Of a DNA stretch of 64,000 bases, positions 1 to 62,171 are shown one piece after another; positions within the stretch are counted from its first letter, which is position 1, and every line of letters begins with the position of its first letter. A model generated the notes under the pieces. It did no database searches. It worked only from the letters and a program-made list of their open reading frames with translations, and had not been told where the DNA came from. Origin of the DNA: an uncultured Candidatus Rokubacteria bacterium (GTDB lineage Bacteria > Methylomirabilota > Methylomirabilia > Rokubacteriales > CSP1-6); contig CAVVEU010000024.1 in assembly GCA_963747235.1 (NCBI GenBank), forward strand, positions 192,001 to 256,000. The letters run 5' to 3'. Position numbers and translations under genes: made by a program.

Positions 1-1154
1 CCGCGTGGGCCCGCAGCCAGGGGGCCGAGTTCAGCGACTATGGCGGCTACGGCATCGCGGCCCGCATCGGACTGATCGCCTACAGCGTCTGCTTCTATCC
101 GCTGAAGCTCGTGTGGCCGGCCGATCTGTCCCCGCTCTACGAGGTGCCCGCCCAGGTGAGCCTCGTGGATGCGCGGTTCCTGATCCCGCTGCTTGCCCTG
201 CTCGCGGTGACCGGCGTCCTGCTCGCGCTCCGGCGCCGCGCGCCGGGCGCGCTGGCCGCGTGGGCGCACGCGGCCGCCTTCGTCGCGCCGGTCAGCGGAG
301 TCGTGCACTCGGGCATCCAGATGGTCGCGGACCGCTACAGCTATCTCGCCCAGGTCGGATTCCTCGTCCTGGCCGGCTACGGGCTCGTGCGCCTGCTCGA
401 GCTCCACCGGGCGGGCCGGGTGCGGCGCGCCGCCATGGCGCTGGCGGGCGGCGGGATCGTGCTGATGCTCGGCGCGCTCGCGGCGTTGACGTGGAGCCAG
501 AGCCACGTGTGGCGAGATCCCGAGACGCTCTGGCGATGGGCGGTGGAGGTCGATCCGCTCTGCTCCCGCTGCCATAACAACCTGGGCGTGGCCCTCATGC
601 ACCATCGTCCGGACCCGCAAGGCCTGGGCGAGGCGGAGGAGCATCTCCGCCGGGCGGTGGCGCTCCGGCCCACGTACGCCCTGAGCCACCTCAACCTCGG
701 CTCGGTCGCGCTGCTCCGCGGCCGTTACGTCGAGGCGGAGGGCGCCTTGCGGAGCTACGTGGCGCGGCAGCCGGATGCTCCGGACGGCGCCGAGCGGCTC
801 GCCGTGCTCTATCTCGTTCAGGGACGATCCGACGAGGCGCTCCCGCTCCTGCGCCGGGCCCGCGGCATCCCCCGGTCCGACGGCGCTCGGGCCGACCTCG
901 CCACCGCGGTGGAGCTGATCCGCGATGGGGAGACCCTGCGCTTCCTCGGCCAGGCCTTGCTCGAACAGGGCCGCGCGGCCGACGCGATCGTCCCGCTCGC
1001 GCGCGCGGTGCAGCTTCATCCCTCGGCGCCCCGCTTCCGCTTCTGGCTCGCGCACGCGTACCGTGGGGCGGGACAGACGGCGCTGGCCGAGGGCGAGTTC
1101 GCGGCGCTACGCCGGCTGGATCCGAAGGCGGCCGCGCCGACCGTGGTCCACTAG
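1..1154 (+). CDS. TMTC-like membrane glycosyltransferase (GT-C) with C-terminal TPRs, copy 1 (5' truncated)
   Basis: LSPLYE, ADRYSYL and WRDPETLW motifs, CSRCHNNLG and TPR repeats; homologous to six other copies in the window. Confidence 0.8.
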   Translation, partial: AWARSQGAEFSDYGGYGIAARIGLIAYSVCFYPLKLVWPADLSPLYEVPAQVSLVDARFLIPLLALLAVTGVLLALRRRAPGALAAWAHAAAFVAPVSGVVHSGIQMVADRYSYLAQVGFLVLAGYGLVRLLELHRAGRVRRAAMALAGGGIVLMLGALAALTWSQSHVWRDPETLWRWAVEVDPLCSRCHNNLGVALMHHRPDPQGLGEAEEHLRRAVALRPTYALSHLNLGSVALLRGRYVEAEGALRSYVARQPDAPDGAERLAVLYLVQGRSDEALPLLRRARGIPRSDGARADLATAVELIRDGETLRFLGQALLEQGRAADAIVPLARAVQLHPSAPRFRFWLAHAYRGAGQTALAEGEFAALRRLDPKAAAPTVVH

Positions 1155-1180
1155 GCCGATCCCGCCGACCGCGCGGGGCT

Positions 1181-1621
1181 TCAGCCGGTCACGTGCTGCC
1201 GGAACGCGTCGAGCGCGGCGGTGCCGACCGCCGTGTCCTGCTCACCGGTGCCCCCGCTGATGCCGATGCCGCCGACCACGTCGCCGTCCACCTCGATGGG
1301 GAAGCCGCCCACGAAGACCGCGAAGCGGCCGGGATGCATGGCGTGGATGCCGAAGGCCTCGTTGCCGGGCAGGGCGGGTCCGGCCGGCGGCTGATTGAAC
1401 GTGTGCGTCGCGCGCCGGTGCCCGGCGGCGGTGAAGGCCTTGGCGATCGCGATCTCCACGCCGGTGATGCGCGCGCCGGTCATGCGGTGGAGCGCGATCG
1501 GGTGGCCGCCGTCGTCGCAGACGCAGATCGTCTCGGTGACGCCGATCTCGCGCGCCTTCGCCTCGGCGGCGGCCAGCAGCACGAGCGCGTCCTCCAGGGT
1601 GAGCCGCTTGACCGTGATCAC
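1181..1621 (-). CDS. GlcG/HbpS family heme-binding protein
   Basis: VCDDGG..LHRM..A..KAFTA..GGFPI..DVVGGIGISGG..EQD; GTG start overlaps the Rieske stop (GTGA). Confidence 0.85.
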   Translation of the reverse strand: MITVKRLTLEDALVLLAAAEAKAREIGVTETICVCDDGGHPIALHRMTGARITGVEIAIAKAFTAAGHRRATHTFNQPPAGPALPGNEAFGIHAMHPGRFAVFVGGFPIEVDGDVVGGIGISGGTGEQDTAVGTAALDAFRQHVTG

Positions 1622-1929
1622 GGCAGCTCCACGAAGATCGCGCCCTCGTCCACGCGCACCGGATAGACCGGCACGCTCGCGCCCCGGCCCGGGAAGAGGC
1701 ACTGGCCGGTGCGCACGTCGTACATCCAGCCGTGCCACGGGCAGGCCAGCCGGCTCCCGTTGAGCTTGCCCTGGCTCAGCGGGCCGCCGCGATGGGAGCA
1801 GACGTCGCCGCACGCGTAGACCGCGTCGCCGATCCGGGCGAGCACGATCCGGGTGCCGTCGAGCTCCACGAGCTTGAGCTGCCCGGCCGGCACCTCGTCC
1901 AGCGAGGCGACGTGCCGGGGCCCGCTCAC
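1618..1929 (-). CDS. Rieske [2Fe-2S] ferredoxin
   Basis: CSH...CPWH ligands in a ~103 aa protein. Confidence 0.9.
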   Translation of the reverse strand: MSGPRHVASLDEVPAGQLKLVELDGTRIVLARIGDAVYACGDVCSHRGGPLSQGKLNGSRLACPWHGWMYDVRTGQCLFPGRGASVPVYPVRVDEGAIFVELP

Positions 1930-2609
1930 GCGTCTTCCTTGAGGACGAAGGCGCGATGGAGCCCGGTCATGTACTGCCAGCGCATCTCGGTCGCCTCGCG
2001 CACGGCCTCCGCGGCGTCGCGCTGCTTCTCGGGGGTCGTGCTGTGGCGCTCCACGATCTGGTAGCCCCGCTCGCCGTGGATCTCGTCGGCCTCGATGTGG
2101 ATCGCGAAGAACTCCACCTCGTGGTCGGTGAAGCCGTAGTGGGTCTTGAGCGGCGGCAGGTTGCGCTTGTAGATGCCCGGCACCTGCGACTCGAGCCCCA
2201 CCAGCAGCCCGGCCGCCGCCACGTGGAAGGGCTTGCGCGCCGTCTCGTAGCACCACGCGGTCAGGCCGCGGGTGCTCGGGAGCTGCCGCGTGCTCTCGAC
2301 CTCGGTCCGGCTCACCCCGCACGCCTCGCCGAAGCGGATGAGGAGATCGACGTGTTTCGTGCCGGACTCCTCCTCGATGATGTTCTCGAGCAGGAAGTCA
2401 CAGGCGTCCGGATCCGGGCAGCCCCCGTACACCAGCGCGCACCAGCGCGAGAACTGCGAGACGTACTGGTAGTGCTGGCACACCCACTGGCCGAGCTGGG
2501 CCCGGGTCAGCTCGCCGTTGACCCACTTCTCGGTGAACGGATTCATCCGGCTGTGCCGGGCGTTGACCGCCTGCTCGAGCTGGGTGCGGAACGGGCTCAT
2601 GGTCGTCAT
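1926..2609 (-). CDS. Heme-oxygenase-like diiron protein (CADD/PqqC/TenA superfamily)
   Basis: [12 protein letters not shown] and HIEADEIH metal-ligand pattern; [13 protein letters not shown]-terminal motif. Confidence 0.8.
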
Positions 2610-2635
2610 GGCGTGCCTCCGTGCGTGAGATCGCG

Positions 2636-3207: not shown

Positions 3208-3223
3208 TGGCATGGCCGATGCA
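3208..3223 (+). promoter_or_regulatory. sigma54 (-24/-12) promoter of the sugar operon
   Basis: TGGCATGGCCGATGCA = GG-N10-GC, ~200 nt upstream of E1 alpha. Confidence 0.6.
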
Positions 3224-3424
3224 AGTTATGCGTGCTTACCGACGTCCGTCGAGGATCAGCTCCAGTACGACCGGCAGCCAAGAGTTCTTATAACCATATG
3301 AATAACAAGTACTAAATACTCCATAGCGCATCGCGTCGGCGTCGCCCATCGGCCCCCGAGCAGGTAGCCGGTTGGTGACCAAGAGCGTCGTCGCCGAGAC
3401 GCTCCTCGTAGCTAGGTGGGGGCG

Positions 3425-4386
3425 ATGACGGCCGCTTCGCGAGTGGACCTGCTACGCAGCATGCTCCGCATCCGCCGCGTCGAGGAGACGCTCGCGGATC
3501 TCTACCCGTCGCAGGAGATGCGGACGCCGACGCACTTCTCGATCGGCCAGGAGGCGGTCGCGGTCGGCGTGTGCGCCGCGCTCCGCCGCGACGACATCGT
3601 CTACAGCGGCCACCGCTGTCACGCCCACTACCTGGCCAAGGGGGGCGACCTCGCCGGCATGGTGGCCGAGCTCTACGGACGCGAGACGGGTTGCGCGCGA
3701 GGACGTGGCGGCTCCGTCCATCTCAACGATCCCGACGCCGGGATCATCGCGTCCTCCGCGATCCTCGGCCAGACCATGGCGGTCGCGGTGGGAACCGCGC
3801 TCGCCTTCGCGATGGACGGCCGGGATCAGGTCGCGGTCAGCTTCTTCGGCGACGGGACCGTGGAGGAGGGCATCTTCCACGAGACACTGAACTTCGCGGT
3901 GATGCGGCGCGCCCCGGTGCTCTTCGTGTGCGAGAACAACGGCTTCTCGACCCACACACGGCTCGAGGTTCGCCAGCCGGTGACGGTGCCGATCCACGCG
4001 CGGGCCGCCTCGTACGGCATGCCCGCGCGCCTGGTGGACGGCAACGACGTCTTCGCGGTCTACGCCGCGGCCCGCGAAGCGGTCGCGCATCCCGGCGCGG
4101 CGCCGGGCCGTTCTTCCTCGAGTGCACCACCTACCGGTGGCGCGAGCACGTCGGCCCGCTGTGGGACTACGACAAGGGATATCGGACGAAGGCCGAGGTC
4201 GATGCGTGGATCGCCCGCTGCCCCATCCGACACGCGTCCGAGCGGCTCTTGGGCGACGGGGTGTGCACGCCGGACGAGATCGCAGGCGATGAAGCGGGCA
4301 AGCCAGGACGAGGTGGACGCGGCGGTCGTCGCGGCGCGCGCGCTCCTTCCCCGACGGTCGAGGACCTGACCACCGGCACCTACTGA
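3425..4386 (+). CDS. TPP-dependent dehydrogenase E1 alpha-like subunit (frameshifted)
   Basis: HFSIGQEA, SGHRCH, GRGGSVH, GDG..EEG..ENN TPP motif, YRWREHVG. Confidence 0.88.
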
Positions 4387-4393
4387 GGACGCC

Positions 4394-5431
4394 ATGAGAG
4401 CGACTCGACCTACGTGGGAGGCCATCAGCGAAGCGACCGTCCAGTGCATGGAAGCGGACCCGGCATCTTCGTGACCGGGATCGGCGTCGACGACTTCAAG
4501 GGGATCTTCGGCACGACCGCGGAGGCCTACCGTCGGTTCGGCCCCGCGCGCGTCTTCGACATCCCGAACGGCGAGAACGCGATGACCGGCATCGCCATCG
4601 GCGCTGCGGCGGTCGGCAAGCGTCCGGTCGTCGTGCATCCGCGCAACGACTTCATGTTCCTGTGCATGGACCAGCTCTTCAACCTGGCCGCCAAGTGGCG
4701 GTACATGTTCGGCAACCGGGGCGGCGTGCCGGTGGTGTTCCGCGGCATCGTGGGCCGCGGATGGGGGCAGGGCGCGACGCATTCCCAGAGCCTGCAGGCG
4801 GTGTTCGCGCACTTCCCGGGACTCTACGTGGCCTTCCCGCGTCCCCCGCCGACGCGAAGGGCTTGCTGGTCAGCGCGCTCCAGGGCACCGGCCCGGTGGT
4901 GCTGCTCGAGAATCGCGCGCTCTACGAGCTCGAGGGCGAGGTGCCGGAGGAACCCGTGGCGGTGCCGTTCGGGAAGGGCAAGGTCGTGCGGCCCGGGACC
5001 GACGTCACGATCGTCGGCGTCTCGCTCATGGCCTACGAGGCGGTGCGGGCTGCCGAGATCCTGGCCGAGCAGGGCGTCGACGCCGAGGTGATCGATCTGC
5101 GCAGCGTCGCGGCCGCTCGACGAGGAGATGATCCTGCGATCGCTTCGGAAGACGGGGCGCCTGGTGGTGGCCGACACGAGCTGGGCTCTCTGCGGCGTCT
5201 CCGCCGAGGTCGCCGCGATCGCGGCCGAGAAGGGTTGGGACCATCTCAAGGCGCCGGTGCGTCGTGTCACGCCGCCCGATTGCCCGGCGCCGGTCTCGCA
5301 CCCGCTCGAAGACGCGTTCCATCCCAACCCGCTGACCATCGCGCAGGCGTGCCTCGACGTGCTGAGGACGGGGACGCCGATCGGGACGCGGCGTCACCGA
5401 CGTCCAGGCCACCTTCGCCGGACCATACTGA
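4394..5431 (+). CDS. TPP-dependent dehydrogenase E1 beta-like subunit (frameshifted)
   Basis: RVFDIPNGEN, GRGWGQGATHSQ, PVVLLENR, EVIDLRS, KTGRLVVAD spread over several frames. Confidence 0.85.
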
Positions 5432-5432
5432 G

Positions 5433-6160
5433 CTGACGCACCGCCGTCGCGTCAGCGTGTTCGTGCCTGCGTACAACGAGGCGGAGAATCTCGAGCGCGC
5501 GGTCGCGACATCGTCTGGGCCGCGGAGCAGGTGCTCGCGAGTACGAGATCCTGATCGTCGACGACGGCAGCCGCGACGCGACGGGACAGCTCGCCGACCG
5601 CCTCGCCGAGGAGAACGCTCGGATCCGGGCCGTCCACCAGCCTCGGAATCTGGGCATCGCGGCGGCCTACGAGCGCGCGCTCGACGAGGCGAAGCTCGAC
5701 TACTTCAGCTTCCTCGCCGCGCGACGGGGAGATCGCTCGCGACTCCATCCGCGACATCTTCGCGGCCGTCGGGCCGGCTGACATCGTGGCGCCCGTACCA
5801 CCAGAACCCGCGGGCGCGCCAGCTCCACCGCCGCTTGCTGACCTGGACGTCGACCCGCTCGTCAACGTGCTCTTCGGCCTTCGCATGCAATACTACCAGG
5901 GCCCCTGCATCTATCCGATCGCGCTCGCGCGCAGTCCTGCCGAAGACCGCGGGCGGCTTCTACTTCCTCACCGAGATGCTCGTCCACGCGCTACACGCCG
6001 GCTATAGCTACGTCGAGGTCGGGCCTCACCCACCTGGACCGCTCCCACGGCCGATCCAAGGCCGTGTCCGCCCGGAATATCCTGAAGGCGCTGCGGGCGA
6101 TCGCGCAGCCGTGGTGGTCGATCCACGTGCGGCACGGGCTCCGTCGCGCGGAGGTCCTGA
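5433..6160 (+). CDS. GT2 polyprenyl-phosphate glycosyltransferase (DPM1/ArnC/GtrB-like; frameshifted, start uncertain)
   Basis: VSVFVPAYNEAENL, EILIVDDGSRD, PRNLG, FLTEMLV. Confidence 0.75.
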
Positions 6161-6161: not shown

Positions 6162-7178
6162 ATGGCGAGGACATCGTCCGACGGTGCTCGTCACTGGCGG
6201 CGGTGGCTACGTCGGAGCCGTGCTGGTCCCGAAGCTCCTGGCCGCCGGTTATCGGGTTCGGGTCGTCGATCTCTTTCTCTTCGGCGCCGACGTGCTGCCC
6301 GAGGACCCGGCCCTCGAGCTCGGTGAAGGCGGACATCCGGGACCGGGCGCTCCTCGAACGCCAGATGCGGGGGTCGATGCCGTCATCCACCTCGCGTGCA
6401 TCTCGAACGACCCGAGCTTCGAGCTCAATCCGACGCTCAGCCGGTCGATCAACTACGACTGCTTCGAGCCCCTCGTCGACGTCGCCCGGCGCGCCGGAGT
6501 CGCGCCGCTTCATCTACGCGTCCACATCGAGCGTGTACGGCGTCAGCGACGCCCCCGACGTGACCGAGGACCATCCGCTCGTGCCGCTGACCGACTACAA
6601 CAAGTACAAGGGCATGTGCGAGCCGATCCTGCTCCGGTATCAGGCGCCCGACTTCACGACGGTCATCATCCGGCCGGCCACGGTCTGCGGGTACTCGCCG
6701 CGGCTCCGGCTCGATCTGACGGTCAACATCCTCACCAACCTCGCGGTCAACAAGCGGCGCATCACGATCTTCGGCGGGCGCCAGAAGCGCCCCAACATCC
6801 ACATCGAGGACATCACGATCTCTACGTCGAGCTGCTCGACATGCCGGACGAGCATGATCGCGGGGCAGACCTTCAACGCCGCCTACCAGAACCACACGGT
6901 CGCCGAGCTCGGCGAGATGGTGCGAGACGATCGTGAGCGCGGGAGATGCCCGAGCTGGGCCCGATCGCGGCTCGAGACGGCGCCGAGCAACGACACTGCG
7001 CTCGTATCACGTCTCGTCCGAGAAGATCAAGCGCGAGCTCGGCTGGTCGCCCGAGCGCACCATCGAGGACGCGGTCGATCGACCTGTGTCGCGCCTTCCG
7101 GGCCGGGCGGATCCCGACCCGCTCGACGACATCCGCTACTACAACGTCAAGACGATTCAGGCGTCGGGCCTGGCCTGA
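6162..7178 (+). CDS. NAD-dependent epimerase/dehydratase (extended SDR) 1 (frameshifted)
   Basis: VLVTGGGGYVG, IHLACISNDPS, YNKYK, RPATVCGYSPRLRLD. Confidence 0.85.
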
Positions 7179-7181
7179 GCG

Positions 7182-8180
7182 ATGCCGCGCGCCGTCGTCA
7201 CCGGCGGAGCGGGCTTCATCGGCAGCCACATGGTCGATCTGCTGGTCGACCGAGGGCTATTCAGGTCGTCGTGATCGACAACCTGGTCACCGGGCCGACG
7301 CGAGAATCTCGCGCAGCACGCGGCGCGATCCGCGCGTCGAGCTTCGCACCGTGGACATGTGCGCGCTGGCGCCGGACGACGCCGCTGTTCCGCGACGCCG
7401 ACTATGTGTTCCACTTCGGCGGCATCGGCGACATCGTGCCGTCGATCGAGCGGCCGCTCGACTACATGCGGGCCAACGTCGACGGCACGCTCGCGGTGCT
7501 CGAGGCCGCGCGGCGCGCCGGGCGTGCGCAAGTTCGTCTACGCGGCCTCGTCGTCGTGCTACGGGCTCGCCACCGAGCTGCCGACCACGGAGGAGGCCGC
7601 CGATCCGGCCCGAGTATCCGTACGCGCTCAGCAAGTACCTCGGCGAGAGCGCGGCGCTGCACTGGGCCCAGGTGTACCGGCTGCCCGTGATCTCGATCCG
7701 CATGTTCAACGTCTACGGTCCACGCGTGCGCACCACCGGCGCCTACGGCGCGGTGTTCGGCGTGTTCCTCGCGCAGAAGCTCCACGGCAAGCCGTTCACC
7801 GTCGTCGGAGACGGCACCCAGCCGCGGGACTTCGTGTTCGTGACCGACGTGGCGCGGGCGTTCCTGCTGGCCGCGGAGTCCGCCGAGACGGCGAGGTCTT
7901 CAACCTCGGGCGCGGGCGACCCGCAGACCGTCAACCGGCTCGTGGAGCTGATCGGCGGCGACGTGGTGCACCTGCCGAAGCGCCCGGGCGAGCCGGACTG
8001 CACGTGGGCCGACATCGGCAAGATCCAGCGGCGCGCTCGGCTGGGAGCCCGAGGTGTCGTTCGAGCAGGGCGTCGCGGCGATGCTCGGCCAGATCGAGGA
8101 CTGGCGGGCGGCGCCGCTGTGGACGCCCGAGAACGATCGAGGCGGCGACCCACACGTGGTTCGAGCACCTGGCGCGATGA
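7182..8180 (+). CDS. NAD-dependent epimerase/dehydratase (extended SDR) 2 (frameshifted)
   Basis: VVTGGAGFIGSH, ASSSCYG, PYALSK, RMFNVYGPR, GDGTQxRDF. Confidence 0.87.
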
Positions 8181-9736
8181 AGGCCGACTACCGGCAGAAG
8201 ATGAAGACGCTCGAGGAGCTGGCGCGCGGCCATCGGCCCGCGGCCCCGCGCACGAAGACGCGTCATCATGTGCCACGGGATGTTCGACATCGTCCATCCG
8301 GGACATCTGCGGCACCTGATGTACGCCAAGGAGAAGGCGGACTCCTGATCGCGAGCCTCACCGCCGACGAGCACGTCACCAAGGCGGCCTTCCGGCCGTA
8401 CGTGCCCGCAGGAGCTGCGCGCGGCCAACCTCGCCGCGCTCGAGATGGTCGACTACGTGATCATCGACCCGAACCCGACGCCGATCGCAGCACATCAAGT
8501 ACCTGCAGCCCGACTACTTCGCCAAGGGCTACGAGTACTTCTCCGAGGGCGTGCCCGCCAAGACGCAGGAGGAGATCGACACGCTGGAAAGCTACGGCGG
8601 CGAGATCGTGTTCACGCCCGGCGACGTCGTCTACTCCTCGTCGCGCGCTGATCGAGGCGGCCCCGCCGAAGCTCGGCGTCGAGAAGCTGCTGGCCCTGAT
8701 GGAGTCGGAGGGCTTCGGGTTCGATCGATCTTCGCGAGACGCTCTCCGGCAGATGCGACGGGTCTGCGGGTGCACGTGGTCGGCGACACGATCGTGGACA
8801 CCTATAGCTACTGCTCGCTGCTCGGGCGCCACCGCGAAGTCGCCGACCTTCAGCGTCAAGCACGAGCGGACCGAGGTGTTCGCGGGCGGCGCCGCGGTGG
8901 TAGCCAAGCACGTGAAGGCGGCGGGCGCCGACGTCTCCTTCTCGACCGTCCTCGGCAACGACGCGGCCAAGGACTTCGTGCTGAAGGATCTGGACGAGGC
9001 CGGGGTCGTGGTGCACGCCTTCGTCGATCGGACCCGGCCGACCACCCAGAAGGAGCGGTTCATCGCGGACGGCTACAAGATGCTCCAGGTCGACCGGGTC
9101 GACAACCGGCGCGGTCTCGGAGCAAGGCGCTGCGCGTTCCTCAGCGACTCGATGGCGGACAGCCGCGCGGACGTGGTGATCTTCAGCGACTTCCGCCACG
9201 GCATCTTCAACCGCCAAGACGCATCCGCGATCCTGCGCGAGCGCGTGCCCGGCCGGCGCGCTCAAGGTGGCGGACAGCCAGGTGTCGAACCGCTGGGGCA
9301 ATATCCTGGACTTCACCGACTTCGATCTGCTGACGCCGAACGAGCGCGAGGCGCGGTTCGCGCTCGGCGATCAGGATTCGGTGGTGCGGCCGCTCGCGCT
9401 CGCAGCTCTTCCGGCGCGCCCGGCTGCAAGCACTGATCCTGAAGCTCGGCGAGCGCGGGCGTCCTCGGCTACCGCACGCCCGGGCCCGATGCCGCGCGAG
9501 TTCTTCACGGTCGACAGCCTCGTCGAACGCCTGGAGGACCCGATCGGCGCCGGCGACGCGCTCCTCGCGCTACGCGTCGCTCTCGCTGGCCGCCACCCGG
9601 CAACATCGTCATCGCCTCGATCCTGGGCTCGGTCGCGGCCGCCCTCGCCTGCGAGCGTCAGGGCAACGTGCCGATCGCCCCGGACGAGGTGGACGAGAAG
9701 ATCAACCTGATCGAAAAGCGGGCGCACTTCGAATGA
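8177..9736 (+). CDS. Bifunctional nucleotidyltransferase / PfkB-family sugar kinase (HldE-like, reversed domain order; frameshifted)
   Basis: N-terminal FDIVHPGH (HxGH); C-terminal VVGDTIVD, FSDFRHG, TPNEREAR, DPIGAGD. Confidence 0.82.
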
Positions 9737-14589: not shown

Positions 14590-14614
14590 CGGAGCGGGCC
14601 CGGAGGGAGACATC

Positions 14615-15826: not shown

Positions 15827-15836
15827 GGCCGCCGCG

Positions 15837-18381: not shown

Positions 18382-18387
18382 CCCGTC

Positions 18388-48945: not shown

Positions 48946-48971
48946 CAGGTCAGTCCCCCCCCTCATACCGT

Positions 48972-50044: not shown

Positions 50045-50048
50045 CGGC

Positions 50049-53057: not shown

Positions 53058-53058
53058 C

Positions 53059-53493
53059 TCAGCGGGATCCGATGTAGGTGCTGACGGTGACCGCGCCGCG
53101 ACGAGTCGAGGCCGGGCCCTGCCCCGCCGCGGCCGGGTAGGTCACGGTGACCGTGACCTGACGGACGCCGGGGGTTGCGATGCCCGAGCACCCGGGGGCG
53201 AGCTCACAGTCCCGGACGCGGACCGCTCGGCTGAAGGCGCCATGGGGCGCCGTCAGCGACGCTTCGTCGGCGAACGCGATGACATTCGCCCCGGAGCCCA
53301 CCGCCAGGCGGATCTGCTCGAGCCGCTGGGTGGCGAGAAAGGCGGCGCCGGACCGGTGGGCACCTTCGTGCACGCCGAATCCAGCGAGCGGGAGCAGGGA
53401 GATCAAGGCGACGAGGCCGATGGAGAGCACGGTGAGCGCGGAGAGAACCTCCGCGAGCGTCAAGCCATGCTCCTGCGCAAGGAGCGACCGCAC
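53059..53493 (-). CDS. PilV-like minor pilin
   Basis: EHG/LTLAEV prepilin site; QRLEQIR; RQVTVTVTY. Confidence 0.72.
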   Translation of the reverse strand: MRSLLAQEHGLTLAEVLSALTVLSIGLVALISLLPLAGFGVHEGAHRSGAAFLATQRLEQIRLAVGSGANVIAFADEASLTAPHGAFSRAVRVRDCELAPGCSGIATPGVRQVTVTVTYPAAAGQGPASTRRGAVTVSTYIGSR

Positions 53494-53503
53494 GCGGGCT
53501 GAC

Positions 53504-53995
53504 CTAGGGGCAGACAGAGGCGGTAGCGGAAGCGAGACAGACACGGCCGGAGGCGCGCGACGATGACCCTCAAGGTCCGTCCGCTGGGCACGTCCGTCAC
53601 GGTGTACGTCGCTCCCGTGGTGGCATTTCCGAGCTGGCCGAAGATCGCGCTGGCGGTCGAGGAGAGGCTGATGTTCTCCGGCAGCCGGACGTTGCCCGCG
53701 GCGCCCGAGAGCCCGGGCAGCGAAGATCACGGTTCCGCCGCGCAGTGCTGGTCGTTCTGAACTGCATGGTGCTCGTGGTATGGGCCACGCACACCGGCCC
53801 GTTCGTCTTGATCGCCAGCTGGCGGCCCTCGTTGAGGTATGCGCTCACTGTCCGCGCCCCGGCCTGGGCCCGGGCACTCCGGAGGTAGTTCAAGAAGGAG
53901 GGCATGGCCCACGTGGTCACGATCAGGATCATGCCGACCGTGATGACCAGCTCGATAAGCGAGTAGCCGGCCTGTGTAGACCGTCGACCGGGCAT
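53504..53995 (-). CDS. FimT/GspH-like minor pilin (frameshifted)
   Basis: QAG/YSLIELV, MPSF, GRQLAI, IFGQLG, ASGRV. Confidence 0.72.
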
Positions 53996-54337
53996 CCGAG
54001 AGACCAGGTATCGAAGCATGGCAGCCCAGTAAGCTAGCAAGAAGGGGACCAAGGCGGGATGCACTCTTCGGGAGCCTCCCCTCTCCCCCGTCGATCCAGA
54101 GCCGCTCTGATCCTCGAGGGAACGCAGAGTGGATAGCAATATAATCAGATACTTATATACATGCTCGGCCGGCCAATTTCCGTCTCCCTTCTGCAAGGCT
54201 CTGGAGACCACCTGATTGGGTGCCACTGCACGTCACCCCAGCCGACCACCTTCGACGATTCTCGGTGGGCCGCCACACTGGCTGTAGGGCGATGGACGGT
54301 GTGACGTCAATCCTGCGACGCCTGCCACGCGAAAGCC

Positions 54338-55120
54338 TCAGCTCTGGAACTGCGCGAAGTACCATGCCAGGAGGGCCTCACCCCAGAAGAGGCTGATGAA
54401 TCCGCCCAGGGCGAGGAACGGACCGAAGGGGATCGGGTCCTTCCGGCTCTTCCGGCCGGTGGCCAGAAGGGCCGCCGCCATGGGGCCTCCCAGGAGCGTC
54501 GAGAGCAGGATGCTCAGGAGGGCAAGCTTCCAGCCGAGGAAGGCCCCGAGCATGGCCCCGAGCTTGACGTCCCCGACGCCCATGCCCGCCTGTCCGAGCA
54601 CCAGGGTGCTGGCGACGATGATCACCACGAATATGCCGCCGCCGAGTAGGACGCCCAGGAGCGAGGGCGCCCATCCGATCCCGCCCGGCGCCAGGCTGAA
54701 CAGGACGCCAAGGGCGATCCCCGGCAGGCTGAGAACATCCGGGATGATCTGGTGATCCAGGTCGATCGCGGTGATCGCCACGAGGCCGGCCAGGAGGATC
54801 AAGGCCGCCGCGAGTGCCGTGCCCGCCTCGAAGCGGCTGTAGGCCAGCACGAACAGGACGCCGCAGGCGATCTCCACCGCCGGATAGCGCCACGAGATCG
54901 GCTCCCGGCAATTCCGACAGCGCCCGCGGAGGAACGTATAGGAGAGCACCGGGAGGTTGTCATACCAGGCGATCGCGTTTCCGCACCGCGGACATGCCGA
55001 GCCGGGGAAGACGATGCTCCGGCCTTCGGGGATCCGCGCGATGACCACGTTGAGGAAGCTGCCAACGCAGAGACCGACGATCGCGATGAAGGTCAAGGCG
55101 ATCCCCTCCGAAGTCAGCAC
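54338..55120 (-). CDS. pilD: Prepilin peptidase
   Basis: GSFLNVVI, CPRC/CRNC, IDLD, GMGVGDVKL, PFGPFL. Confidence 0.93.
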   Translation of the reverse strand: MLTSEGIALTFIAIVGLCVGSFLNVVIARIPEGRSIVFPGSACPRCGNAIAWYDNLPVLSYTFLRGRCRNCREPISWRYPAVEIACGVLFVLAYSRFEAGTALAAALILLAGLVAITAIDLDHQIIPDVLSLPGIALGVLFSLAPGGIGWAPSLLGVLLGGGIFVVIIVASTLVLGQAGMGVGDVKLGAMLGAFLGWKLALLSILLSTLLGGPMAAALLATGRKSRKDPIPFGPFLALGGFISLFWGEALLAWYFAQFQS

Positions 55121-55276: not shown

Positions 55277-55682
55277 CTACGGAACCGAGACGCTCGTGGC
55301 GTCACCGGAGTTGGTGATGGTGAAGGTACCGGACGTCGTGGAGGCGTAGCCGTACGCGCCCCAGCCGGCCGGGCCCGCGGGGACCGAGGCCAGGAAGGGG
55401 CCGCCCGGCTGCCCGAGCGAGTTGGTGACCACCGAGGTAGAGGGCGGTCAGGGCGCCGGGGAGCGTGCCCATGTGAGCGGAGTAGATGCTGACGGCGGAC
55501 GCGAGGGCCCGGGCATCAGCCTGGGCCTTGGCCAGCCGCGCGCGCGCCTGGACGTTGGCGTACAGCGGGATGGCGATGGCAGCGAGGATACCGATGATGG
55601 CGACGACGATCATCAACTCGATGAGCGTGAAGCCGCGCTGGTTGCTCAGCAGCTTGTGCCGCCGGTGCCAGAACTTCGTCAT
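55277..55682 (-). CDS. pilA: Type IVa major pilin, copy B (+1 indel near 55439)
   Basis: NQRG/FTLIELMIVVAIIGILAAIAIP; ends ...GDATSVSVP* once the indel is corrected. Confidence 0.85.
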
Positions 55683-55751
55683 GGACTCTGCCTCCGTTGT
55701 TTTCGGTTGAGATGTTGATCCTGCGCCCGTGGCGCACCGGTCACGCTCATG

Positions 55752-55767
55752 TGCACATCGTGTGCCA
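55752..55767 (-). promoter_or_regulatory. sigma54 promoter of pilA copy B
   Basis: TGGCACACGATGTGCA (GG-N10-GC). Confidence 0.7.
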
Positions 55768-55869
55768 CGCGAGGCCAGACGAACACGCCGTCGGAGTGAC
55801 GCATTGAACGGCGGAGCGGCGGGGCATCGGCGGGACCGACGCGTTGGCGCGCCGACACGACATCATCAC

Positions 55870-55914
55870 AAAATGACGATCACGCGGGGAGGGGTTACCT
55901 CGCCCGCGTGATCG
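55870..55914 (-). terminator. Terminator hairpin after pilA copy A
   Basis: CGATCACGCGGG...CCCGCGTGATCG stem followed by TCATTTTG. Confidence 0.7.
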
Positions 55915-55943
55915 GTTCAGCAGTTGCTGCGTTGGTTCAGCCC

Positions 55944-56349
55944 TTACGGAACCGAGACGCTCGTGGCTGTCACCGGAGTTGGTGATGGTGAAGGTACCGG
56001 AAGTCGTGGAGGCGTAGCCGTACGCGCCCCAGCCGGCCGGGCCCGCGGGGACCGAGGACATGAAGGGACCGCCCGCCTGCCCGAGCGAGTTGGTGACCAC
56101 CGAGGTGAGGGCGGTCAGGGCGCCGGGGAGCGTGCCCATGTGAGCGGAGTAGATGCTGACGGCGGACGCGAGGGCCCGGGCATCAGCCTGGGCCTTGGCC
56201 AGCCGCGCGCGCGCCTGGACGTTGGCGTACAGCGGGATGGCGATGGCAGCGAGGATACCGATGATGGCGACGACGATCATCAACTCGATGAGCGTGAAGC
56301 CGCGCTGGTTGCCCAGCATCTTCCGCTTACGATTCCAGAACCTGTTCAT
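55944..56349 (-). CDS. pilA: Type IVa major pilin, copy A (+1 indel near 55967)
   Basis: NQRG/FTLIELMIVV; 117-aa mature pilin ending ...SVSVP* once the indel is corrected. Confidence 0.87.
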
Positions 56350-56423: not shown

Positions 56424-56439
56424 TGCATCTTCGGTGCCA
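56424..56439 (-). promoter_or_regulatory. sigma54 promoter of pilA copy A
   Basis: TGGCACCGAAGATGCA (GG-N10-GC), downstream of pilR. Confidence 0.75.
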
Positions 56440-56626: not shown

Positions 56627-58024
<1,398 letters not shown>

Positions 58025-58082
58025 ATCCGCCTCGTCTCGCGGCGCCGGCTCCCGGCCCACCGCGTCAGGATGCTATTCGGAC

Positions 58083-59726
58083 TCATCTGCGGGCGGCCCC
58101 CTCGGGAGCGGGAAGCGTGAGGACGAAGGTCGTGCCCTCGCCTACGCGGCTCCGGACCTCGATCGAGCCTCCGTGCTCCTCGACGACCCGGTAGACGAGC
58201 GCCAGGCCGATGCCGCTGCCCTCCGGCTTCGTCGAGAAGAACGGCTCGAATATGTGCGGCAGGTCGGTCTCCGCGATGCCCTGGCCGGTGTCGGTGATGG
58301 AGATCTGGAGGCGGCCCCCGCGCTCGCGGAGCGACTGGGCTCCGACCCGGAGCTCACCCCCGTCGGGCATCGCCTGGACCGCGTTGAGACAGAGATTCCA
58401 CACCGCCTGCCGCAGCCGCTGGGGATCGGCGCGGGTCGGCAGCGACTCTCCGTACTCCCGCGACACCTTCAGGTTGGCGGGCAGGGTGCGATGCTCGATG
58501 AGGAGCAGCACCTCGTCGAGGATCTCCGCCATGTTGATCTCGATCGCCGCCATCGGGGCCGGGCGTGCGTACTCGAGGAAGTCCCCGACGATCTGGTTGA
58601 GCCGGGCGGACTCCCGCAGCACGATGTCGACGAGCTGGCTCCGGGTATTGTCGGGCGGCAGATCGCGGGCGAGCGCCTCGACCGCTCCCGAGATCGACGC
58701 GAGCGGGTTGCGGATCTCGTGCGCCATGTTGGCCGAGAGGCGGCCGACCGCGGCCAGCCGGTCCGCCTGGCGCATGCGCTGCTCCATCTGCTTGATGCTG
58801 GAGAGGTCCTGGCAGACCCCGATGAGGCCGGCCACGTCTCCGGTGCCGGAGCGAAGCGACCAGAACGAGATGCCAACCGGAACCTCCTGACCGTCGCGCC
58901 GGCGGAGACGGAACTCGTAGCGCGGCGCCGGCTCGCTTCCGTCCGAGACCGCGCGACTCACCTCGGCCAGGTCGACCCCGTCTCCGAAGATCGTTTCCCA
59001 CCCCTGGTCGACCGCGTCCTCCGCGCGCACGCCGGTGATGGACTCGGCGGCCCGGTTGAACGCGGTGACCCGGCCGTTCGGAGCCACGCCGACCAGCCCC
59101 GAGCCCACCGATTCGAAGATCAGGTCTCGGAAGGCCTGCAGGTCGGAGAGATGCTTCCGCTGGTCCTCCATGTGTTCCTGCAGCTCGTGATAGCGCTCCG
59201 CGAGGGCCCCGGTGACGACCGCGACCGCGAGCAGCACTCCCGCGTTCATGAAGACGGTCAAGATCTCGAGCGCGGTGTTCTCGGAGGGGGCGCCCACCTT
59301 CAACATCGGCACGATCGTGCGGCCCAGGACCGGCAGCACGTAGAGGAGACTGCAGATTCCCGCGACGATCAGGCCTCCCCGCCCGGAGAGCACGAAGCAA
59401 GAGGCCACCACGAGGAGCACGTAGAGTGGGATGAAGACCGATTGGGGCCCGCCGGTCGCGGTGATGATGCCGGTGATGAGGACCGCGTCCAACCCGAACT
59501 GGAACCACGCGATCCGCTCCAGCGGCACGCCCCGCCGCTCCCCCAGCGGCAACACCAGGCAGGCGGCGGCGCCGCCGAGCACCGCCATCGCAAACGTGCC
59601 GAAGGCGTACGGGAACGCCTCCGTGAACCGGAGCAGCGCTCCGACCGCCAGCACGATGGCGGCCGTGAGCAGTCGCGCCCGGTTCAGCCCCCACAGGGAC
59701 GAACGGAGCGCGGGCGACTTGGGCAA
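58083..59726 (-). CDS. pilS: Membrane PAS sensor histidine kinase
   Basis: About 6 TM, PAS domain, AHEIRNPL, NAVQAM, DTGQG, GIGL. Confidence 0.87.
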   Translation of the reverse strand: MPKSPALRSSLWGLNRARLLTAAIVLAVGALLRFTEAFPYAFGTFAMAVLGGAAACLVLPLGERRGVPLERIAWFQFGLDAVLITGIITATGGPQSVFIPLYVLLVVASCFVLSGRGGLIVAGICSLLYVLPVLGRTIVPMLKVGAPSENTALEILTVFMNAGVLLAVAVVTGALAERYHELQEHMEDQRKHLSDLQAFRDLIFESVGSGLVGVAPNGRVTAFNRAAESITGVRAEDAVDQGWETIFGDGVDLAEVSRAVSDGSEPAPRYEFRLRRRDGQEVPVGISFWSLRSGTGDVAGLIGVCQDLSSIKQMEQRMRQADRLAAVGRLSANMAHEIRNPLASISGAVEALARDLPPDNTRSQLVDIVLRESARLNQIVGDFLEYARPAPMAAIEINMAEILDEVLLLIEHRTLPANLKVSREYGESLPTRADPQRLRQAVWNLCLNAVQAMPDGGELRVGAQSLRERGGRLQISITDTGQGIAETDLPHIFEPFFSTKPEGSGIGLALVYRVVEEHGGSIEVRSRVGEGTTFVLTLPAPEGAARR

Positions 59727-59741
59727 CCAGCAGCTCTCGGG

Positions 59742-60941
59742 CTACTTGACCAGCGTGACCAGTTTGAAGATCGGCAGGTACATGGCCACGACGAGGCCGC
59801 CGACCACCACGCCGAGGAACACGATCATCATCGGCTCCAGCAGCGAGGTGAGCGTGCTGACCGCGGTGTCCACTTCGTCGTCATAGAAGTCGGCGATCTT
59901 GCTCAGCATCGCGTCGAGGGCGCCGGTCTGCTCGCCGACCGAGATCATCTGGGTGACCATCGGCGGGAACACGCCGGAGGTGCGCAGCGGATCGGCCAGG
60001 GTCTTACCTTCCGTGACCGCGGCGCGGCACTGGAGCACCGCCTTCTCCACCACCTTGTTCCCGGCGGTCCGGGCGGTGATCCGGAGGCCGTCCAGGATCG
60101 GCACGCCGGACTGGACGAGAGTGCCCAGCGTCCGGGTGAAGCGGGCCACCGCGACCTTGCGCACGAGGGTGCCGAAGACCGGGAGCTTGAGCATCAGCGC
60201 ATCGATGGTGGCGCGCCCGCCCTCGGTTCGGTAGTAGGACCGCAGGGCCATGACCGAGCCGATCATGCCCGCGATGATCAGCAGGATGTAGGCGCGCACG
60301 AAGTTGGACAGCCACAGGACGATCATCGTGGGCATCGGTAGGTCCGCGCCGAGGTCCTTGAACATCTGGGCGAAGGTCGGGATCACGAACGTCAGCATGA
60401 AGATGACGACCATCATCGCGACCCCGATGATCGCGGCCGGGTACACCATCGCGGCCTTGACCTTGCGCTTGAGGGCGGCCGCTTTCTCGATGTAGGCGGC
60501 GAGACGCTGGAGGACGACGTCGAGGATACCGCCGGCCTCTCCCACCTCGACGAGGTTCGTGAAGAGATCATCGAAGGTTCGCGGGTGGCGCCGCAGCGCG
60601 TCGGCGAGCGTGGAGCCCGCCTCCACGTGGCGGGCGACCTGTCCGGTGACGCTCCGGAGCGTCTTCGACTCGCTCTGCTCGGCGAGGATGTTCAGGCACT
60701 GCACCAGCGGAAGACCGGCGTCGATCATGGTGGAGAACTGGCGGGTGAAGATCGCCATCTCCTTGTCCTTGACCTTGCCGCCGAACTTGAAGGATATCTT
60801 CGGCGCCGTCTTTTCCGCGATCTTGGTGACGAGAATCGAGCGGCGCCGAAGCTCTCCCACCGCCGCCGAGCGGTCGGGAGCTTCGATCTCGCCGTTCTGG
60901 TTTCCACTGGCGGTGCGACCCTGATAGACGAAGACAGCCAT
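59742..60941 (-). CDS. pilC: Type IV pilus platform protein
   Basis: FTRQFSTMIDAGLP, GEAGG, YP, GEQTG, MYLPIF. Confidence 0.93.
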   Translation of the reverse strand: MAVFVYQGRTASGNQNGEIEAPDRSAAVGELRRRSILVTKIAEKTAPKISFKFGGKVKDKEMAIFTRQFSTMIDAGLPLVQCLNILAEQSESKTLRSVTGQVARHVEAGSTLADALRRHPRTFDDLFTNLVEVGEAGGILDVVLQRLAAYIEKAAALKRKVKAAMVYPAAIIGVAMMVVIFMLTFVIPTFAQMFKDLGADLPMPTMIVLWLSNFVRAYILLIIAGMIGSVMALRSYYRTEGGRATIDALMLKLPVFGTLVRKVAVARFTRTLGTLVQSGVPILDGLRITARTAGNKVVEKAVLQCRAAVTEGKTLADPLRTSGVFPPMVTQMISVGEQTGALDAMLSKIADFYDDEVDTAVSTLTSLLEPMMIVFLGVVVGGLVVAMYLPIFKLVTLVK

Positions 60942-60962
60942 CGTGTAAGCCTCCCCGGTGGA

Positions 60963-62096
60963 CTACCGTCTGCCGAATGGAGAGCCGCCCGCGCCCGCGA
61001 CCGCGGCGGGCGCGCCCGCGGGGGCGGCCGGAGCGTTCCCGAGCAGTCCCGCGAGCTCTTCGGGCAGCGTGCTGCGGTTCAGCGCTTCTTCCCGGCTGAT
61101 GCGGCGCTTCTGCACCAGCTCGGCGAGCGACTGGTTCATGGTCTGCATGCCGAACTTCTGGCCCGCCTGCATGGCGGAATAGATCTGGTGGACCTTCTCC
61201 TCGCGGATGAGGTTCCGGATCGCGGGAGTCGCGACCATGATCTCCAGCGACATGGCCCGGCCCCGGCCGTCCGCGGTCGGGATCAATTGCTGCGACATGA
61301 CGCCCTCGAGCACCAGGGAAAGCTGGGCGCGCACCTGCGCCTGCTGGCTGGTGGGGAACACGTCGATGATCCGGTTGATCGTCTGAGCGCAGGAGTTGGT
61401 GTGGAGCGTGCCGAGCGTCAGGTGGCCGGTCTCGGCGATGGTCAGGGCCGCCGAGATGGTCTCGAGGTCGCGCATCTCACCGACGAGCACGACGTCGGGG
61501 TCCTGGCGCAGGATCGACTTCAGCGCGTTCTTGAACGAGTGCGTGTCCGAGAAGACCTCGCGCTGGTTCACCATGCACTTCTTGTGCTGGTGCACGAACT
61601 CGATCGGGTCCTCGATGGTGACGATGTGCTCCGAGCGCTCGGAGTTGACCTTGTCCACCATCGCGGCCAGCGTCGTCGACTTGCCGGAGCCGGTGGGGCC
61701 GGTGACCAGGATCAGGCCCTTGGGCCGGTCGGCCATCTGCTCGACGATCGCGGGAAGCCCCAGCTCGTCGAAGGTCCGGATCTTCACCGGGATGACGCGG
61801 ATGGCGCAGGCGACCGCGCCCCGCTGGCGGTAGACGTTGCAGCGGAAGCGAGCGAGCCCGTGGATGCCGAACGACAGGTCCAGCTCGTTCTCTTCCTCGA
61901 ACTTCTGCTTCTGGCCCTCGTTGAGGACGCTGTAGGCCAGGCGCTGCGTATCGGTCGGGCTCAGCGATTCGAACTGGGTGATCGGCGTGAGCTTGCCGTT
62001 GAGCCGGATCTGCGGGTGCGTGCCCGTCGTGATGTGGAGGTCGGAGGCTCCACGCTCGATCATCAGGGTCAGCAGGTCGTGCATCGTGGCCGCCAT
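60963..62096 (-). CDS. pilT: Twitching motility retraction ATPase
   Basis: GPTGSGKSTT, TIEDPIE, LRQDPD, GEMRD, AIRNLIRE. Confidence 0.95.
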   Translation of the reverse strand: MAATMHDLLTLMIERGASDLHITTGTHPQIRLNGKLTPITQFESLSPTDTQRLAYSVLNEGQKQKFEEENELDLSFGIHGLARFRCNVYRQRGAVACAIRVIPVKIRTFDELGLPAIVEQMADRPKGLILVTGPTGSGKSTTLAAMVDKVNSERSEHIVTIEDPIEFVHQHKKCMVNQREVFSDTHSFKNALKSILRQDPDVVLVGEMRDLETISAALTIAETGHLTLGTLHTNSCAQTINRIIDVFPTSQQAQVRAQLSLVLEGVMSQQLIPTADGRGRAMSLEIMVATPAIRNLIREEKVHQIYSAMQAGQKFGMQTMNQSLAELVQKRRISREEALNRSTLPEELAGLLGNAPAAPAGAPAAVAGAGGSPFGRR

Positions 62097-62155
62097 TGGT
62101 TCCCTTGAACCTCCCTATAGACCTGAGTGTATGCCCCAGGGCCCCTCAAGGCGCA

Positions 62156-62171
62156 TGCAACCTGCGTTCCA
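62156..62171 (-). promoter_or_regulatory. sigma54 promoter of pilT-pilC-pilS-pilR
   Basis: TGGAACGCAGGTTGCA (GG-N10-GC with TTGC). Confidence 0.65.

Follow-up and report, generated by a model that had tools for sequence, protein, structure and literature searches.

Genes at the locus

We analysed a 64,000-nucleotide stretch (the window, G000:C24:192001-256000) from the genome G000 of an uncultured Candidatus Rokubacteria bacterium, in which type IVa pilus genes, a sugar-nucleotide operon and an array of genes for putative glycosyltransferases of the C superfamily (GT-C) with tetratricopeptide repeats (TPR) lie together. The genome measures 5.57 Mb in 42 contigs and is 88% complete, and close homologues of its proteins bear the labels Candidatus Rokuibacteriota or Rokubacteria. 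An earlier note on this DNA had proposed that the sugar operon, a lipid-carrier glycosyltransferase, seven TMTC-like GT-C/TPR genes and two pilins form one pathway of protein O-glycosylation. By analogy with TfpW, which modifies pilin in Pseudomonas aeruginosa, we read the locus as a putative TfpW-like periplasmic protein glycosylation system. The GC content of the window is 65-74%, and it holds 230 open reading frames (ORFs) of at least 100 aa. Plain ORF lists mislead at such GC, and genes were therefore called by codon-position GC bias and then checked against Pfam. Positions refer to the window unless a contig is named. The GT-C/TPR and pilus genes are as follows.

3..1154, plus strand: GT-C/TPR copy 1, the TPR-bearing 3' part (TPR families); the gene starts upstream, at G000:C24:191292
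22088..26085, minus strand: GT-C/TPR copies 2 and 3, 649 and 683 aa, intact (22088-24037 and 24034-26085; TPR families, GT-C fold in an AF2 model, invariant W38, D39 and D40)
32750..38292, minus strand: GT-C/TPR copies 4, 5 and 6 (32750-34661, 34658-36406 and 36403-38292)
42104..44008, plus strand: GT-C/TPR copy 7, which adjoins aroB and has no counterpart in the congener G013
46322..51661, minus strand: pilQ, pilP, pilO, pilN and pilM (Secretin, PilP, PilO, PilN and PilM_2 families)
51900..55120, minus strand: minor-pilin-like genes (weak PilX_N and N_methyl matches) and the prepilin peptidase gene pilD (54338-55120)
55280..56349, minus strand: pilA2 (55280-55682, with a frame change near 55432) and pilA1 (~55945-56349, with an extra base four codons before the stop)
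56627..62096, minus strand: pilR (sigma-54 activator), pilS, pilC and pilT (family matches)

The pil genes of the window are thus pilQPONM, minor pilins, pilD, pilA2, pilA1, pilR, pilS, pilC and pilT, and pilB lies outside it, 9 kb upstream (L018:1355-3433). A type IVa pilus system is present, with PilA, PilD, PilM to PilQ, PilC, PilT, PilB and PilSR all found. The neighbours of pilB at G000:C24:180243-184680 (L018:243-4680) are genes for a small Ras/Arf-like GTPase, two Roadblock/LC7 (MglB-like) proteins and a TPR protein. The arrangement resembles an MglA/MglB-type polarity module, set next to the gene for the pilus ATPase.

The GT-C/TPR proteins

All seven GT-C/TPR genes that had been claimed were located in the window, by TPR families and tblastn. 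The N-terminal domain of copy 1 was placed by tblastn at C24:191292-192557. With four N-domain queries, tblastn found ten N-domain loci in the genome: one fragment at the end of contig C1 and nine at C24:185004-235441, in the 50 kb between pilB and pilQ. Copies 4 and 5 are frameshifted in the window (636 and 588 aa in G013), and copy 6 (629 aa) is a tandem extra relative to G013. A copy in the same aroB-adjacent position as copy 7 was seen in G045 and G068. We rejected an 841-aa ORF at 36403-38928 as a thiE-GT-C fusion; it is copy 6 together with a frameshifted thiE.

TPR families cover the C-terminal parts of these proteins. The N-domains had no Pfam or NCBIfam match, and PMT_2 was absent even at E<=10. 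The fold was recognized from an AlphaFold (AF2) model with a pLDDT of 90 and a pTM of 0.84. Comparison with 48,161 chains by VIA-align wide laid residues 5-416 on the Pmt1-Pmt2 chain 6p2r_B (Z 20.5, root-mean-square deviation 4.5, 349 residues aligned); the other matches were AglB (Z 19.6), Pmt4 (18.9), STT3 (18.7), ArnT (5f15, 18.1), PglB (5ogl, 17.1) and also ALG12. With the full-length model, a Foldseek search of the PDB gave TPR proteins only, and the GT-C match emerged solely with VIA-align wide. In an alignment of 38 sequences F35, W38, D39 and D40 are invariant and many membrane residues are conserved, which argues for catalysis. The model thus places these proteins in the GT-C superfamily, with a PMT/ArnT/STT3-type fold and the DD in the first extracytoplasmic loop. 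Fold, invariant DD and TPR domain together point to GT-C enzymes with a periplasmic TPR domain, and the earlier reading of them as GT-C enzymes with the architecture of TfpW and TMTC proteins is supported by the model and the alignment. Their donor would be a polyprenyl-phosphate-linked sugar, judging by the family only.

Calling these proteins TMTC homologues was an overstatement. DUF1736 (PF08409), the Pfam signature of TMTC proteins (CAZy GT105), gave no match in three proteins of clade B (see below; E<=1), nor in four N-domains or a six-frame translation of the genome (both E<=10). The architecture itself is common; at least 3843 proteins of the GT-C/TPR type were found at E<=1e-5 among 8000 scored candidates. 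Our literature search found no experimental work on such proteins apart from TfpW and no description of the family in Rokubacteria; the search covers few subscription journals.

Linkage to pilus genes in relatives

To place the copies we used a tree of 31 N-domains, chosen by us from the loci that were fetched. Copies that lie in the slot between pilA and pilD (pil-slot copies) split into clade B (100/100) and a pil-slot group of clade A (98/97). A third, expansion clade (100/99) holds copies 1, 2, 3 and 6, the G013 orthologues of copies 4 and 5, and two copies from an array in G067. Copy 7 is loosely associated with the copies next to aroB in G045 and G068. This grouping suggests that the window copies are a lineage-specific expansion linked to sugar modules. 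The G067 array is a second, independent one and surrounds a module of E1-alpha, E1-beta, family 2 glycosyltransferase (GT2), SIS isomerase and aminotransferase genes. It directly adjoins a second, divergent pilus-like cluster at L016:2268-8506 (G067:C10), which has a PilM-like gene (22% identity) and an N-methyl pseudopilin. The array also has a radical SAM/B12 enzyme, and its aminotransferase is of the DegT type.

We surveyed 81 genomes of the order Rokubacteriales; the counts take in G072 and G049, but none of our claims depends on these two by themselves. PilM was found in 71 genomes, GT-C/TPR genes in 64 and clade B in at least 7 (15 candidates scored per genome). At least 26 of the 71 genomes with PilM have a GT-C/TPR gene and pilM on one contig, no more than 11 kb apart. 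This count was read by eye from place lists and is a lower bound, being drawn from 150 of 230 listed matches, with many contigs short. The linkage takes a definite form. All six further genomes inspected, from five other genera, have the order pilB-T-C-S-R, pilA (one to three copies), GT-C/TPR (one to three copies), pilD, pilMNO(P)Q. A clade-B gene stands between pilA and pilD, overlapping the start of pilD, in G045, G068, G083, G067 and G060, and in G065 pilA is followed by a related GT-C/TPR copy at the contig end. The order pilA, GT-C/TPR, pilD thus occurs in six of six further genomes and in six genomes of the divergent clade, and the pilin link of the family is tighter than had been claimed. 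In genomes of family f4 the distance from a copy to pilM is 20-78 kb, and the synteny GT-C/TPR, DAO, MaoC, liv, accC, accB, efp, aroB, pilQ is conserved.

In a contig search, twelve of the 17 closest loci have pil genes, 11 of these with pilD directly after the match, and pilin or pil genes adjoin the match at 4 of 61 distant loci outside the phylum. Proteins like those of clade B (54-83% identity) also occur on the contigs L025, L027, L031 and L034, from metagenome-assembled genomes labelled Nitrosocosmicus, Verrucomicrobiia, Deferrimicrobiaceae and Dormiibacterota. On two of these contigs a Rokubacteria-like pilD or pilM adjoins the match, and the labels are probably binning errors.

G000 itself has one clade-B gene, outside the window and adjoining pilB. 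It shares 28% identity with copy 3 and 57% with a G045 gene, carries the VWDD motif of clade-B proteins, and is the sole G000 copy orthologous to a pil-slot enzyme. By this phylogeny the pil-slot orthologue of G000 has moved next to pilB. Of the possible acceptors for the GT-C/TPR family in the order Rokubacteriales, the major pilin has the best support.

Pilins and sigma-54 elements

In their correct frames both pilA genes encode prepilins of ~134 aa with no cysteine. The C-terminal half is 34-36% Ser and Thr in both intact copies from G013 and 27-33% in seven further Rokubacteriales pilins; the figure for other window proteins is 10%. Two cysteine-free, Ser/Thr-rich pilins are therefore there as predicted, while the 200-aa ORF that had been taken for PilA is an out-of-frame run-on. 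As a side observation, pilA1 and pilA2 are near-identical over the first ~80 codons and have a sigma-54 promoter each, and relatives have one to three tandem pilA genes.

The GG-N10-GC motifs that had been singled out before the sugar operon, both pilA genes and pilT are uninformative when taken bare; the window has 1670 matches, with 1615 expected. At these four sites, by contrast with the bare motif, a real sigma-54 consensus holds in the extended form TGGCAY-N5-NTGCA. The only two exact window matches to TGGCAC-N6-TGC lie 85-90 nt before pilA1 and pilA2.

3208..3222, plus strand: sigma-54-type -24/-12 element TGGCATGGCCGATGC, ~208 nt before the sugar operon; one mismatch to TGGCAC-N6-TGC
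55753..55767, minus strand: sigma-54 promoter of pilA2, TGGCACACGATGTGC; exact match, conserved in G013
56425..56439, minus strand: sigma-54 promoter of pilA1, TGGCACCGAAGATGC; exact match
62157..62171, minus strand: sigma-54-like element before pilT, TGGAACGCAGGTTGC; one mismatch, conserved in G013

The element is kept in relatives before six of six sugar operons (including one from another genus), 13 of 16 pilA genes and two of two pilT genes, and rpoN is present at C8:726117. These -24/-12 elements, in the context TGGCAC-N5-TTGCW and conserved upstream of the genes, are thus predicted sigma-54 promoters. The genome has 20 matches to sigma-54 activators, and common sigma-54 dependence therefore does not show a shared regulon; that the four sites share the motif is weak evidence for one pathway.

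The sugar operon

The gene content of the operon was read from the congener G015, where the frames are open.

3416..5436, plus strand: a pair of thiamine pyrophosphate (TPP)-dependent E1-alpha-like and E1-beta-like genes, frameshifted in the window (E1_dh, Transket_pyr and Transketolase_C families)
5445..6160, plus strand: DPM1/ArnC-like GT2, 241 aa in relatives, frameshifted in the window (Glycos_transf_2)
6175..8174, plus strand: two epimerase/dehydratase genes of the short-chain dehydrogenase/reductase (SDR) type, frameshifted in the window (family matches)
8177..9733, plus strand: nucleotidyltransferase fused to a PfkB sugar kinase, frameshifted in the window (CTP_transf_like at residues 31-157, PfkB at 195-491)
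9733..11922, plus strand: Gfo/Idh/MocA oxidoreductase and nucleoside diphosphate (NDP)-sugar dehydrogenase, frameshifted in the window (family matches)
11940..15284, plus strand: GmhB-like HAD phosphatase, GmhA-like SIS isomerase, SDR, S-adenosylmethionine (SAM) methyltransferase and FSA/TalC-type transaldolase, all frameshifted in the window
15288..16361, plus strand: two paralogous small membrane proteins, 178 and 174 aa, the first frameshifted and the second intact
16454..19066, plus strand: membrane di-iron hydroxylase/desaturase-like gene and two methyltransferases (FA_desaturase and Methyltransf families; weak GntB-like match)
19083..20818, minus strand: ArnT/PMT_2-like GT-C without TPR, 580 aa in G013, with one frameshift in the window (490 + 88 aa; PMT_2)

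Both donor-side enzymes that had been predicted were recovered. The ArnT-like GT-C scores 57.0-57.5 bits with PF13231, over the gathering cut-off of 26.1, and is present at 19083-20818 despite its frameshift in the assembly; a gene for a DAO-type flavoprotein, like the ArnT-like gene, is on the opposite strand and convergent with the operon. The GT2, of 241 aa, scores 78 bits with PF00535, and its best solved relatives are an archaeal dolichol-phosphate-mannose synthase (5mlz, E 6e-9 over residues 6-223) and ArnC (1e-7 to 1e-6). It stands far under the cut-offs of all NCBIfam equivalogs, and by these matches its catalytic domain is nearest to polyprenyl-phosphate sugar synthases of the DPM1/ArnC/GtrB type.

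The sugar-making enzymes fit known classes at family level. The NDP-sugar dehydrogenase scores 217 bits with TIGR03026, over the subfamily cut-off of 189.8. The E1-like pair scores under the equivalog cut-offs for pyruvate dehydrogenase. The equivalogs of the ADP-heptose pathway were not reached (GmhA 54 vs 209, HldE 141 vs 521, GmhB 108 vs 178), and in the kinase/nucleotidyltransferase fusion the domain order is opposite to that of HldE, with the HldE domain models matching under their cut-offs. By these scores the operon appears related, not equivalent, to the ADP-heptose pathway GmhA/HldE/GmhB/HldD. The enzyme classes match eight of the nine in the thio-octose branch of lincosamide synthesis, which makes a derivative of NDP-heptose or NDP-octose the probable product. 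A heptose reading (GmhA/HldE/GmhB-like) would fit equally well as an octose one, all scores being under equivalog cut-offs. The two small membrane proteins had no family at E<=0.001, and a flippase role for them is only a guess.

A conserved leader with an inverted repeat, GGTGACCAAGAGCGTCG...GAGACGCTSCTCGT, follows the sigma-54 element at 3370-3412, ahead of the first gene of the operon, and has the same place in L002-L005 and L015. Five congeners have this leader and another genus has part of it; Rfam gave no family in it. Another sugar region lies at C24:469000-495400, with a GT2, E1-alpha and E1-beta twice, SDRs, two kinase-nucleotidyltransferase fusions, a Gfo oxidoreductase, an NDP-sugar dehydrogenase, a SIS isomerase, GmhB and a transaldolase. 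It is paralogous to the operon module, with 30-69% protein identity.

Between GT-C/TPR copy 1 and the operon, at 1181-3213 on the minus strand, are genes for an HbpS-like haem-degrading protein, a Rieske protein, a haem-oxygenase-like/PqqC-TenA family protein and an AIR carboxylase. An Rfam scan of the window found no family.

Proposed pathway and rival explanations

Fold, DD motif, domain architecture and gene linkage are the observations from which we infer chemistry and acceptor. The sigma-54-driven operon would make an NDP-activated sugar of heptose or octose type from sedoheptulose or octulose phosphate. Its backbone would be built by the transaldolase, SIS isomerase, kinase-nucleotidyltransferase and HAD phosphatase and tailored by the SDRs, NDP-sugar dehydrogenase, Gfo/MocA oxidoreductase, TPP-dependent E1-like pair and methyltransferases. 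The DPM1-like GT2 would load the sugar onto polyprenyl phosphate, the lipid-linked sugar would be flipped across the membrane, and periplasmic GT-C enzymes would use it as donor, with the TPR domains selecting protein acceptors. On this proposal the type IVa pilus locus lies within an enlarged array of genes for GT-C/TPR enzymes that face the periplasm, the operon feeds protein glycosylation and the damage to the operon is artefactual. Our confidence in this combination is evenly balanced. Pilin as acceptor is well supported at the level of the family and only indirectly for the window copies and this sugar; the expansion-clade copies, together with the operon, may have pilin or other envelope proteins as their target.

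Several observations count against the proposal. The pilA-pilD slot of the window has a second pilA (pilA1-pilA2-pilD) and no glycosyltransferase, and the recurrence of linkage across relatives is thus confirmed for the family but not for the window's own slot. Six of the seven window copies are in the expansion clade and are not orthologues of pil-slot enzymes. The pil linkage among relatives is partly inherited synteny, and the counts above therefore overstate independence. Pilin glycosylation is here a prediction from genes. Of the 64 genomes with GT-C/TPR genes, 56 lack the operon by the marker that we used, a match to its kinase/nucleotidyltransferase with at least 55% identity. No GT-C gene lies near the paralogous sugar region at C24:469-495 kb. 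Finally, the ArnT-like GT-C without TPR stands beside the operon in g1 and g17 genomes and could be the true consumer of the operon sugar.

The operon marker was found in 8 of the 81 genomes, and all 8 have GT-C/TPR genes, which is unremarkable given a 79% background. With the operon in 8 and GT-C/TPR genes in 64 genomes, the GT-C/TPR family does not depend on the operon. The proposal of a single pathway is not supported as it was stated, all the more with six window copies outside the pil-slot clades. We did not use the co-occurrence of clade B and operon as evidence; they share 4 genomes (7 with clade B, 8 with the operon, 81 in all), 3 of the 4 are of the same genus, and clade B was scored on 15 candidates per genome. 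A possible though less probable explanation is that two unrelated systems are neighbours here. The operon, GT2 and ArnT-like GT-C would then modify a lipid or glycan (lipid A, the lipopolysaccharide core or another envelope glycolipid) as ArnC and ArnT do, and the GT-C/TPR enzymes would use a common donor from elsewhere. The ArnT-like gene keeps its place beside the operon, ~9.4 kb from the kinase gene in the window, G065 and G068 and ~8 kb in G045, and is thus a serious alternative consumer of the lipid-linked sugar. The membrane hydroxylase/desaturase-like gene and the methyltransferases after the operon may also fit lipid chemistry. However, the ArnT-like gene was not found in G072 and G092, both of which have the operon marker. 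The operon is surrounded by all of the genome's GT-C/TPR copies, and G067 has a similar sugar module inside a GT-C/TPR array, two copies of which are sister to window copies; these arrangements favour a shared pathway. A second ArnT-like gene lies on contig C1, adjoining the GT-C/TPR fragment there.

We consider it doubtful that the GT-C/TPR proteins serve something other than pilin, either as enzymes of general periplasmic or outer-membrane O-glycosylation of other proteins or glycans, or through their TPR in pilus or secretin assembly like PilF/PilW/Tgl. A single genome can have as many as 14 matches, some in arrays far from pil genes (for example G045:C7 and G067:C8), and six window copies fall outside the pil-slot clades, as noted. 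The TPR parts also resemble TPR proteins of the PilW/PilF/Tgl type, under the family cut-offs. By contrast, the invariant DD motif and the many conserved residues of the transmembrane domain point to catalysis, and the exact pilA-to-pilD position, which is that of TfpW, recurs in at least 12 inspected genomes and in a few other phyla.

The state of the operon in this assembly also has to be explained. It lies at 3416-15820 and is present, as the earlier note had it, but not intact; 14 of 15 genes are split over frames. From 3.4 to 15.8 kb the phase of high GC at third codon positions (GC3) changes at intervals of a few hundred bases, and single Pfam domains are spread over overlapping ORFs. 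Five congeners carry the same 12 kb at 83-87% identity. In G013, G015 and G005 the region is an uninterrupted 15-gene operon, and in G008 one gene is interrupted. When the G015 proteins were mapped onto the window, the 14 split genes fell in several frames. A five-way alignment gave 85 window-specific indels of a length not divisible by three at 4091-15696 (56 of +1, 25 of -1 and 4 of +2), and in the same alignment the four congeners have 7, 2, 6 and 5 of their own. Substitutions on the window lineage keep a third-position bias, with 239 at position 3 vs 119 and 86 at positions 1 and 2. Frame changes relative to G013 occur elsewhere in the window too, in the ArnT-like gene, GT-C/TPR copies 4 and 5, thiE, a gene of the OCD family, a liv gene, the 5' end of pilQ and both pilA genes, and G013 is itself broken in accC, pilS and pilC.

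Dense, patchy, insertion-biased single-base indels point to consensus errors and not to gene decay. With the operon open in three congeners, the window frameshifts are most likely an assembly artefact, as judged from these alignments. Some results sit less easily with this. The ratio of third-position to first- plus second-position substitutions is 1.17 in the window vs 1.5-2.0 in relatives; this excess of changes at positions 1 and 2 fits added sequencing errors and also a brief relaxation of selection. Among public sequencing runs, none contained more than 0.06 of the words of window 4000-13900. That the operon is truly dead, a decaying pseudogene cluster, would agree with the interruption of all 14 genes, the place of the region among the 12 bins of 10 kb, out of 528, that are covered least by long ORFs, and the excess just named, but it is very improbable in view of indels of 1-2 nt with insertions to deletions at 60:25 and a single 3-nt event, in-frame stretches that retain a GC3 of 0.85-1.0 and a protein identity to G015 of mostly 70-93%, and frameshifts that also hit essential or housekeeping genes (thiE, pilQ and both pilA) and, in the close relative G013, other genes.

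Comparison with known systems

The closest known system is TfpW of P. aeruginosa Pa5196 and PA7, the D-arabinofuranosyl transferase of group IV pilins. As described in bioRxiv 10.1101/2020.04.19.049825, TfpW has 646 aa, 11 transmembrane helices, a C-terminal periplasmic TPR and a DDX motif; its gene lies directly after pilA, and it is required for pilin glycosylation. Compared by description, the proteins studied here are like it in having a GT-C domain, DD(x) in the first periplasmic loop, a C-terminal periplasmic TPR and a length of ~620-680 aa. In relatives the gene between pilA and pilD matches the TfpW arrangement, whereas no window copy is in the pilA slot. ArnT was the template on which TfpW could best be modelled, and the GT-C/TPR proteins have their best fold matches in ArnT and PMT. 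Unlike the single TfpW, there are up to nine paralogues in G000. The candidate donor here is heptose- or octose-like and made with a DPM1-like GT2, while the TfpW system uses the DprE1/DprE2 decaprenyl-phosphate-arabinose route. The window pilins are without a disulfide loop (no Cys), and Pseudomonas pilins have one. The differences from TfpW thus lie in the number of copies, in the candidate pathway for the donor and in the phylum of the host; the domain architecture and, among relatives, the position of the gene are shared. We also considered a cyanobacterial pilin-modifying Ogt as a relative and rejected it, since it is a GT41 enzyme and not a GT-C.

Animal TMTC1-4 are protein O-mannosyltransferases of the endoplasmic reticulum that act on cadherins. 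The likeness lies in a GT-C domain with multiple transmembrane helices followed by lumenal or periplasmic TPR repeats, with DD in loop 1. By eye, with no profile, the clade-B strings SHYYRP, HPIHTE and KEVAVT resemble the published TMTC strings SHKSYRP, FAVHPIHT and KET(Q)xxT. In an ESM feature search the eukaryotic DUF1736 cluster came at rank 19 with a score of 0.92, and the nearest named clusters were bacterial ones of PMT_2 type. Unlike TMTC1-4, the proteins have no detectable DUF1736, the loop between transmembrane helices 7 and 8, and host, compartment, donor and acceptors differ.

With the pairs ArnC/ArnT and DPM1/PMT the locus has in common a GT2 nearest to dolichol-phosphate-mannose synthase (DPMS) and ArnC alongside GT-C enzymes, one of them a PMT_2 member, and the putative logic from NDP-sugar to polyprenyl-phosphate sugar to periplasmic transfer. 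It differs in that the GT2, at 241 aa, is without the C-terminal membrane helices of ArnC, GtrB and archaeal DPMS, and the sugar, judging by the operon content, would be neither mannose nor 4-amino-4-deoxyarabinose (Ara4N). For the sugar itself, Table 1 of PMC12945683 lists nine enzyme classes in the lincosamide thio-octose branch (LmbR, N, P, K, O, L, M, Z and S). Eight of those tabulated recur in the operon: transaldolase, isomerase, kinase, phosphatase, nucleotidyltransferase, dehydrogenase, epimerase and NAD(P) oxidoreductase. The parallel with that table is one of enzyme classes and not of Lmb sequences; the operon is without an aminotransferase and has, in addition to the tabulated branch, the TPP-dependent E1 pair, the GT2 and methyltransferases.

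In its most elaborate form the proposal would make the expansion-clade paralogues a bacterial multi-enzyme counterpart of TMTC1-4. Each would place or extend an unusual C7 or C8 sugar on Ser or Thr of a beta-rich, Cys-free pilin and other envelope proteins, the sugar coming from an Lmb-like NDP-octose or NDP-heptose route with a TPP-dependent branch step and an anchor-less DPM1-like synthase, with sigma-54 co-expression with pilA. We regard this form as unlikely. At the level of the family, the genomic evidence for a link to pilin is strong; the window copies and their sugar may share it.

Meaning for the family

The patches of dense indel errors in the G000 assembly call for caution with its gene calls. 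In Pseudomonas, pilin glycosylation matters for phage resistance and surface behaviour, as summarized in 10.1101/150227. In this uncultured phylum, the conserved order pilA, GT-C/TPR, pilD offers a concrete and testable substrate for the numerous GT-C/TPR family, and the linked operon may encode a new higher-carbon sugar.

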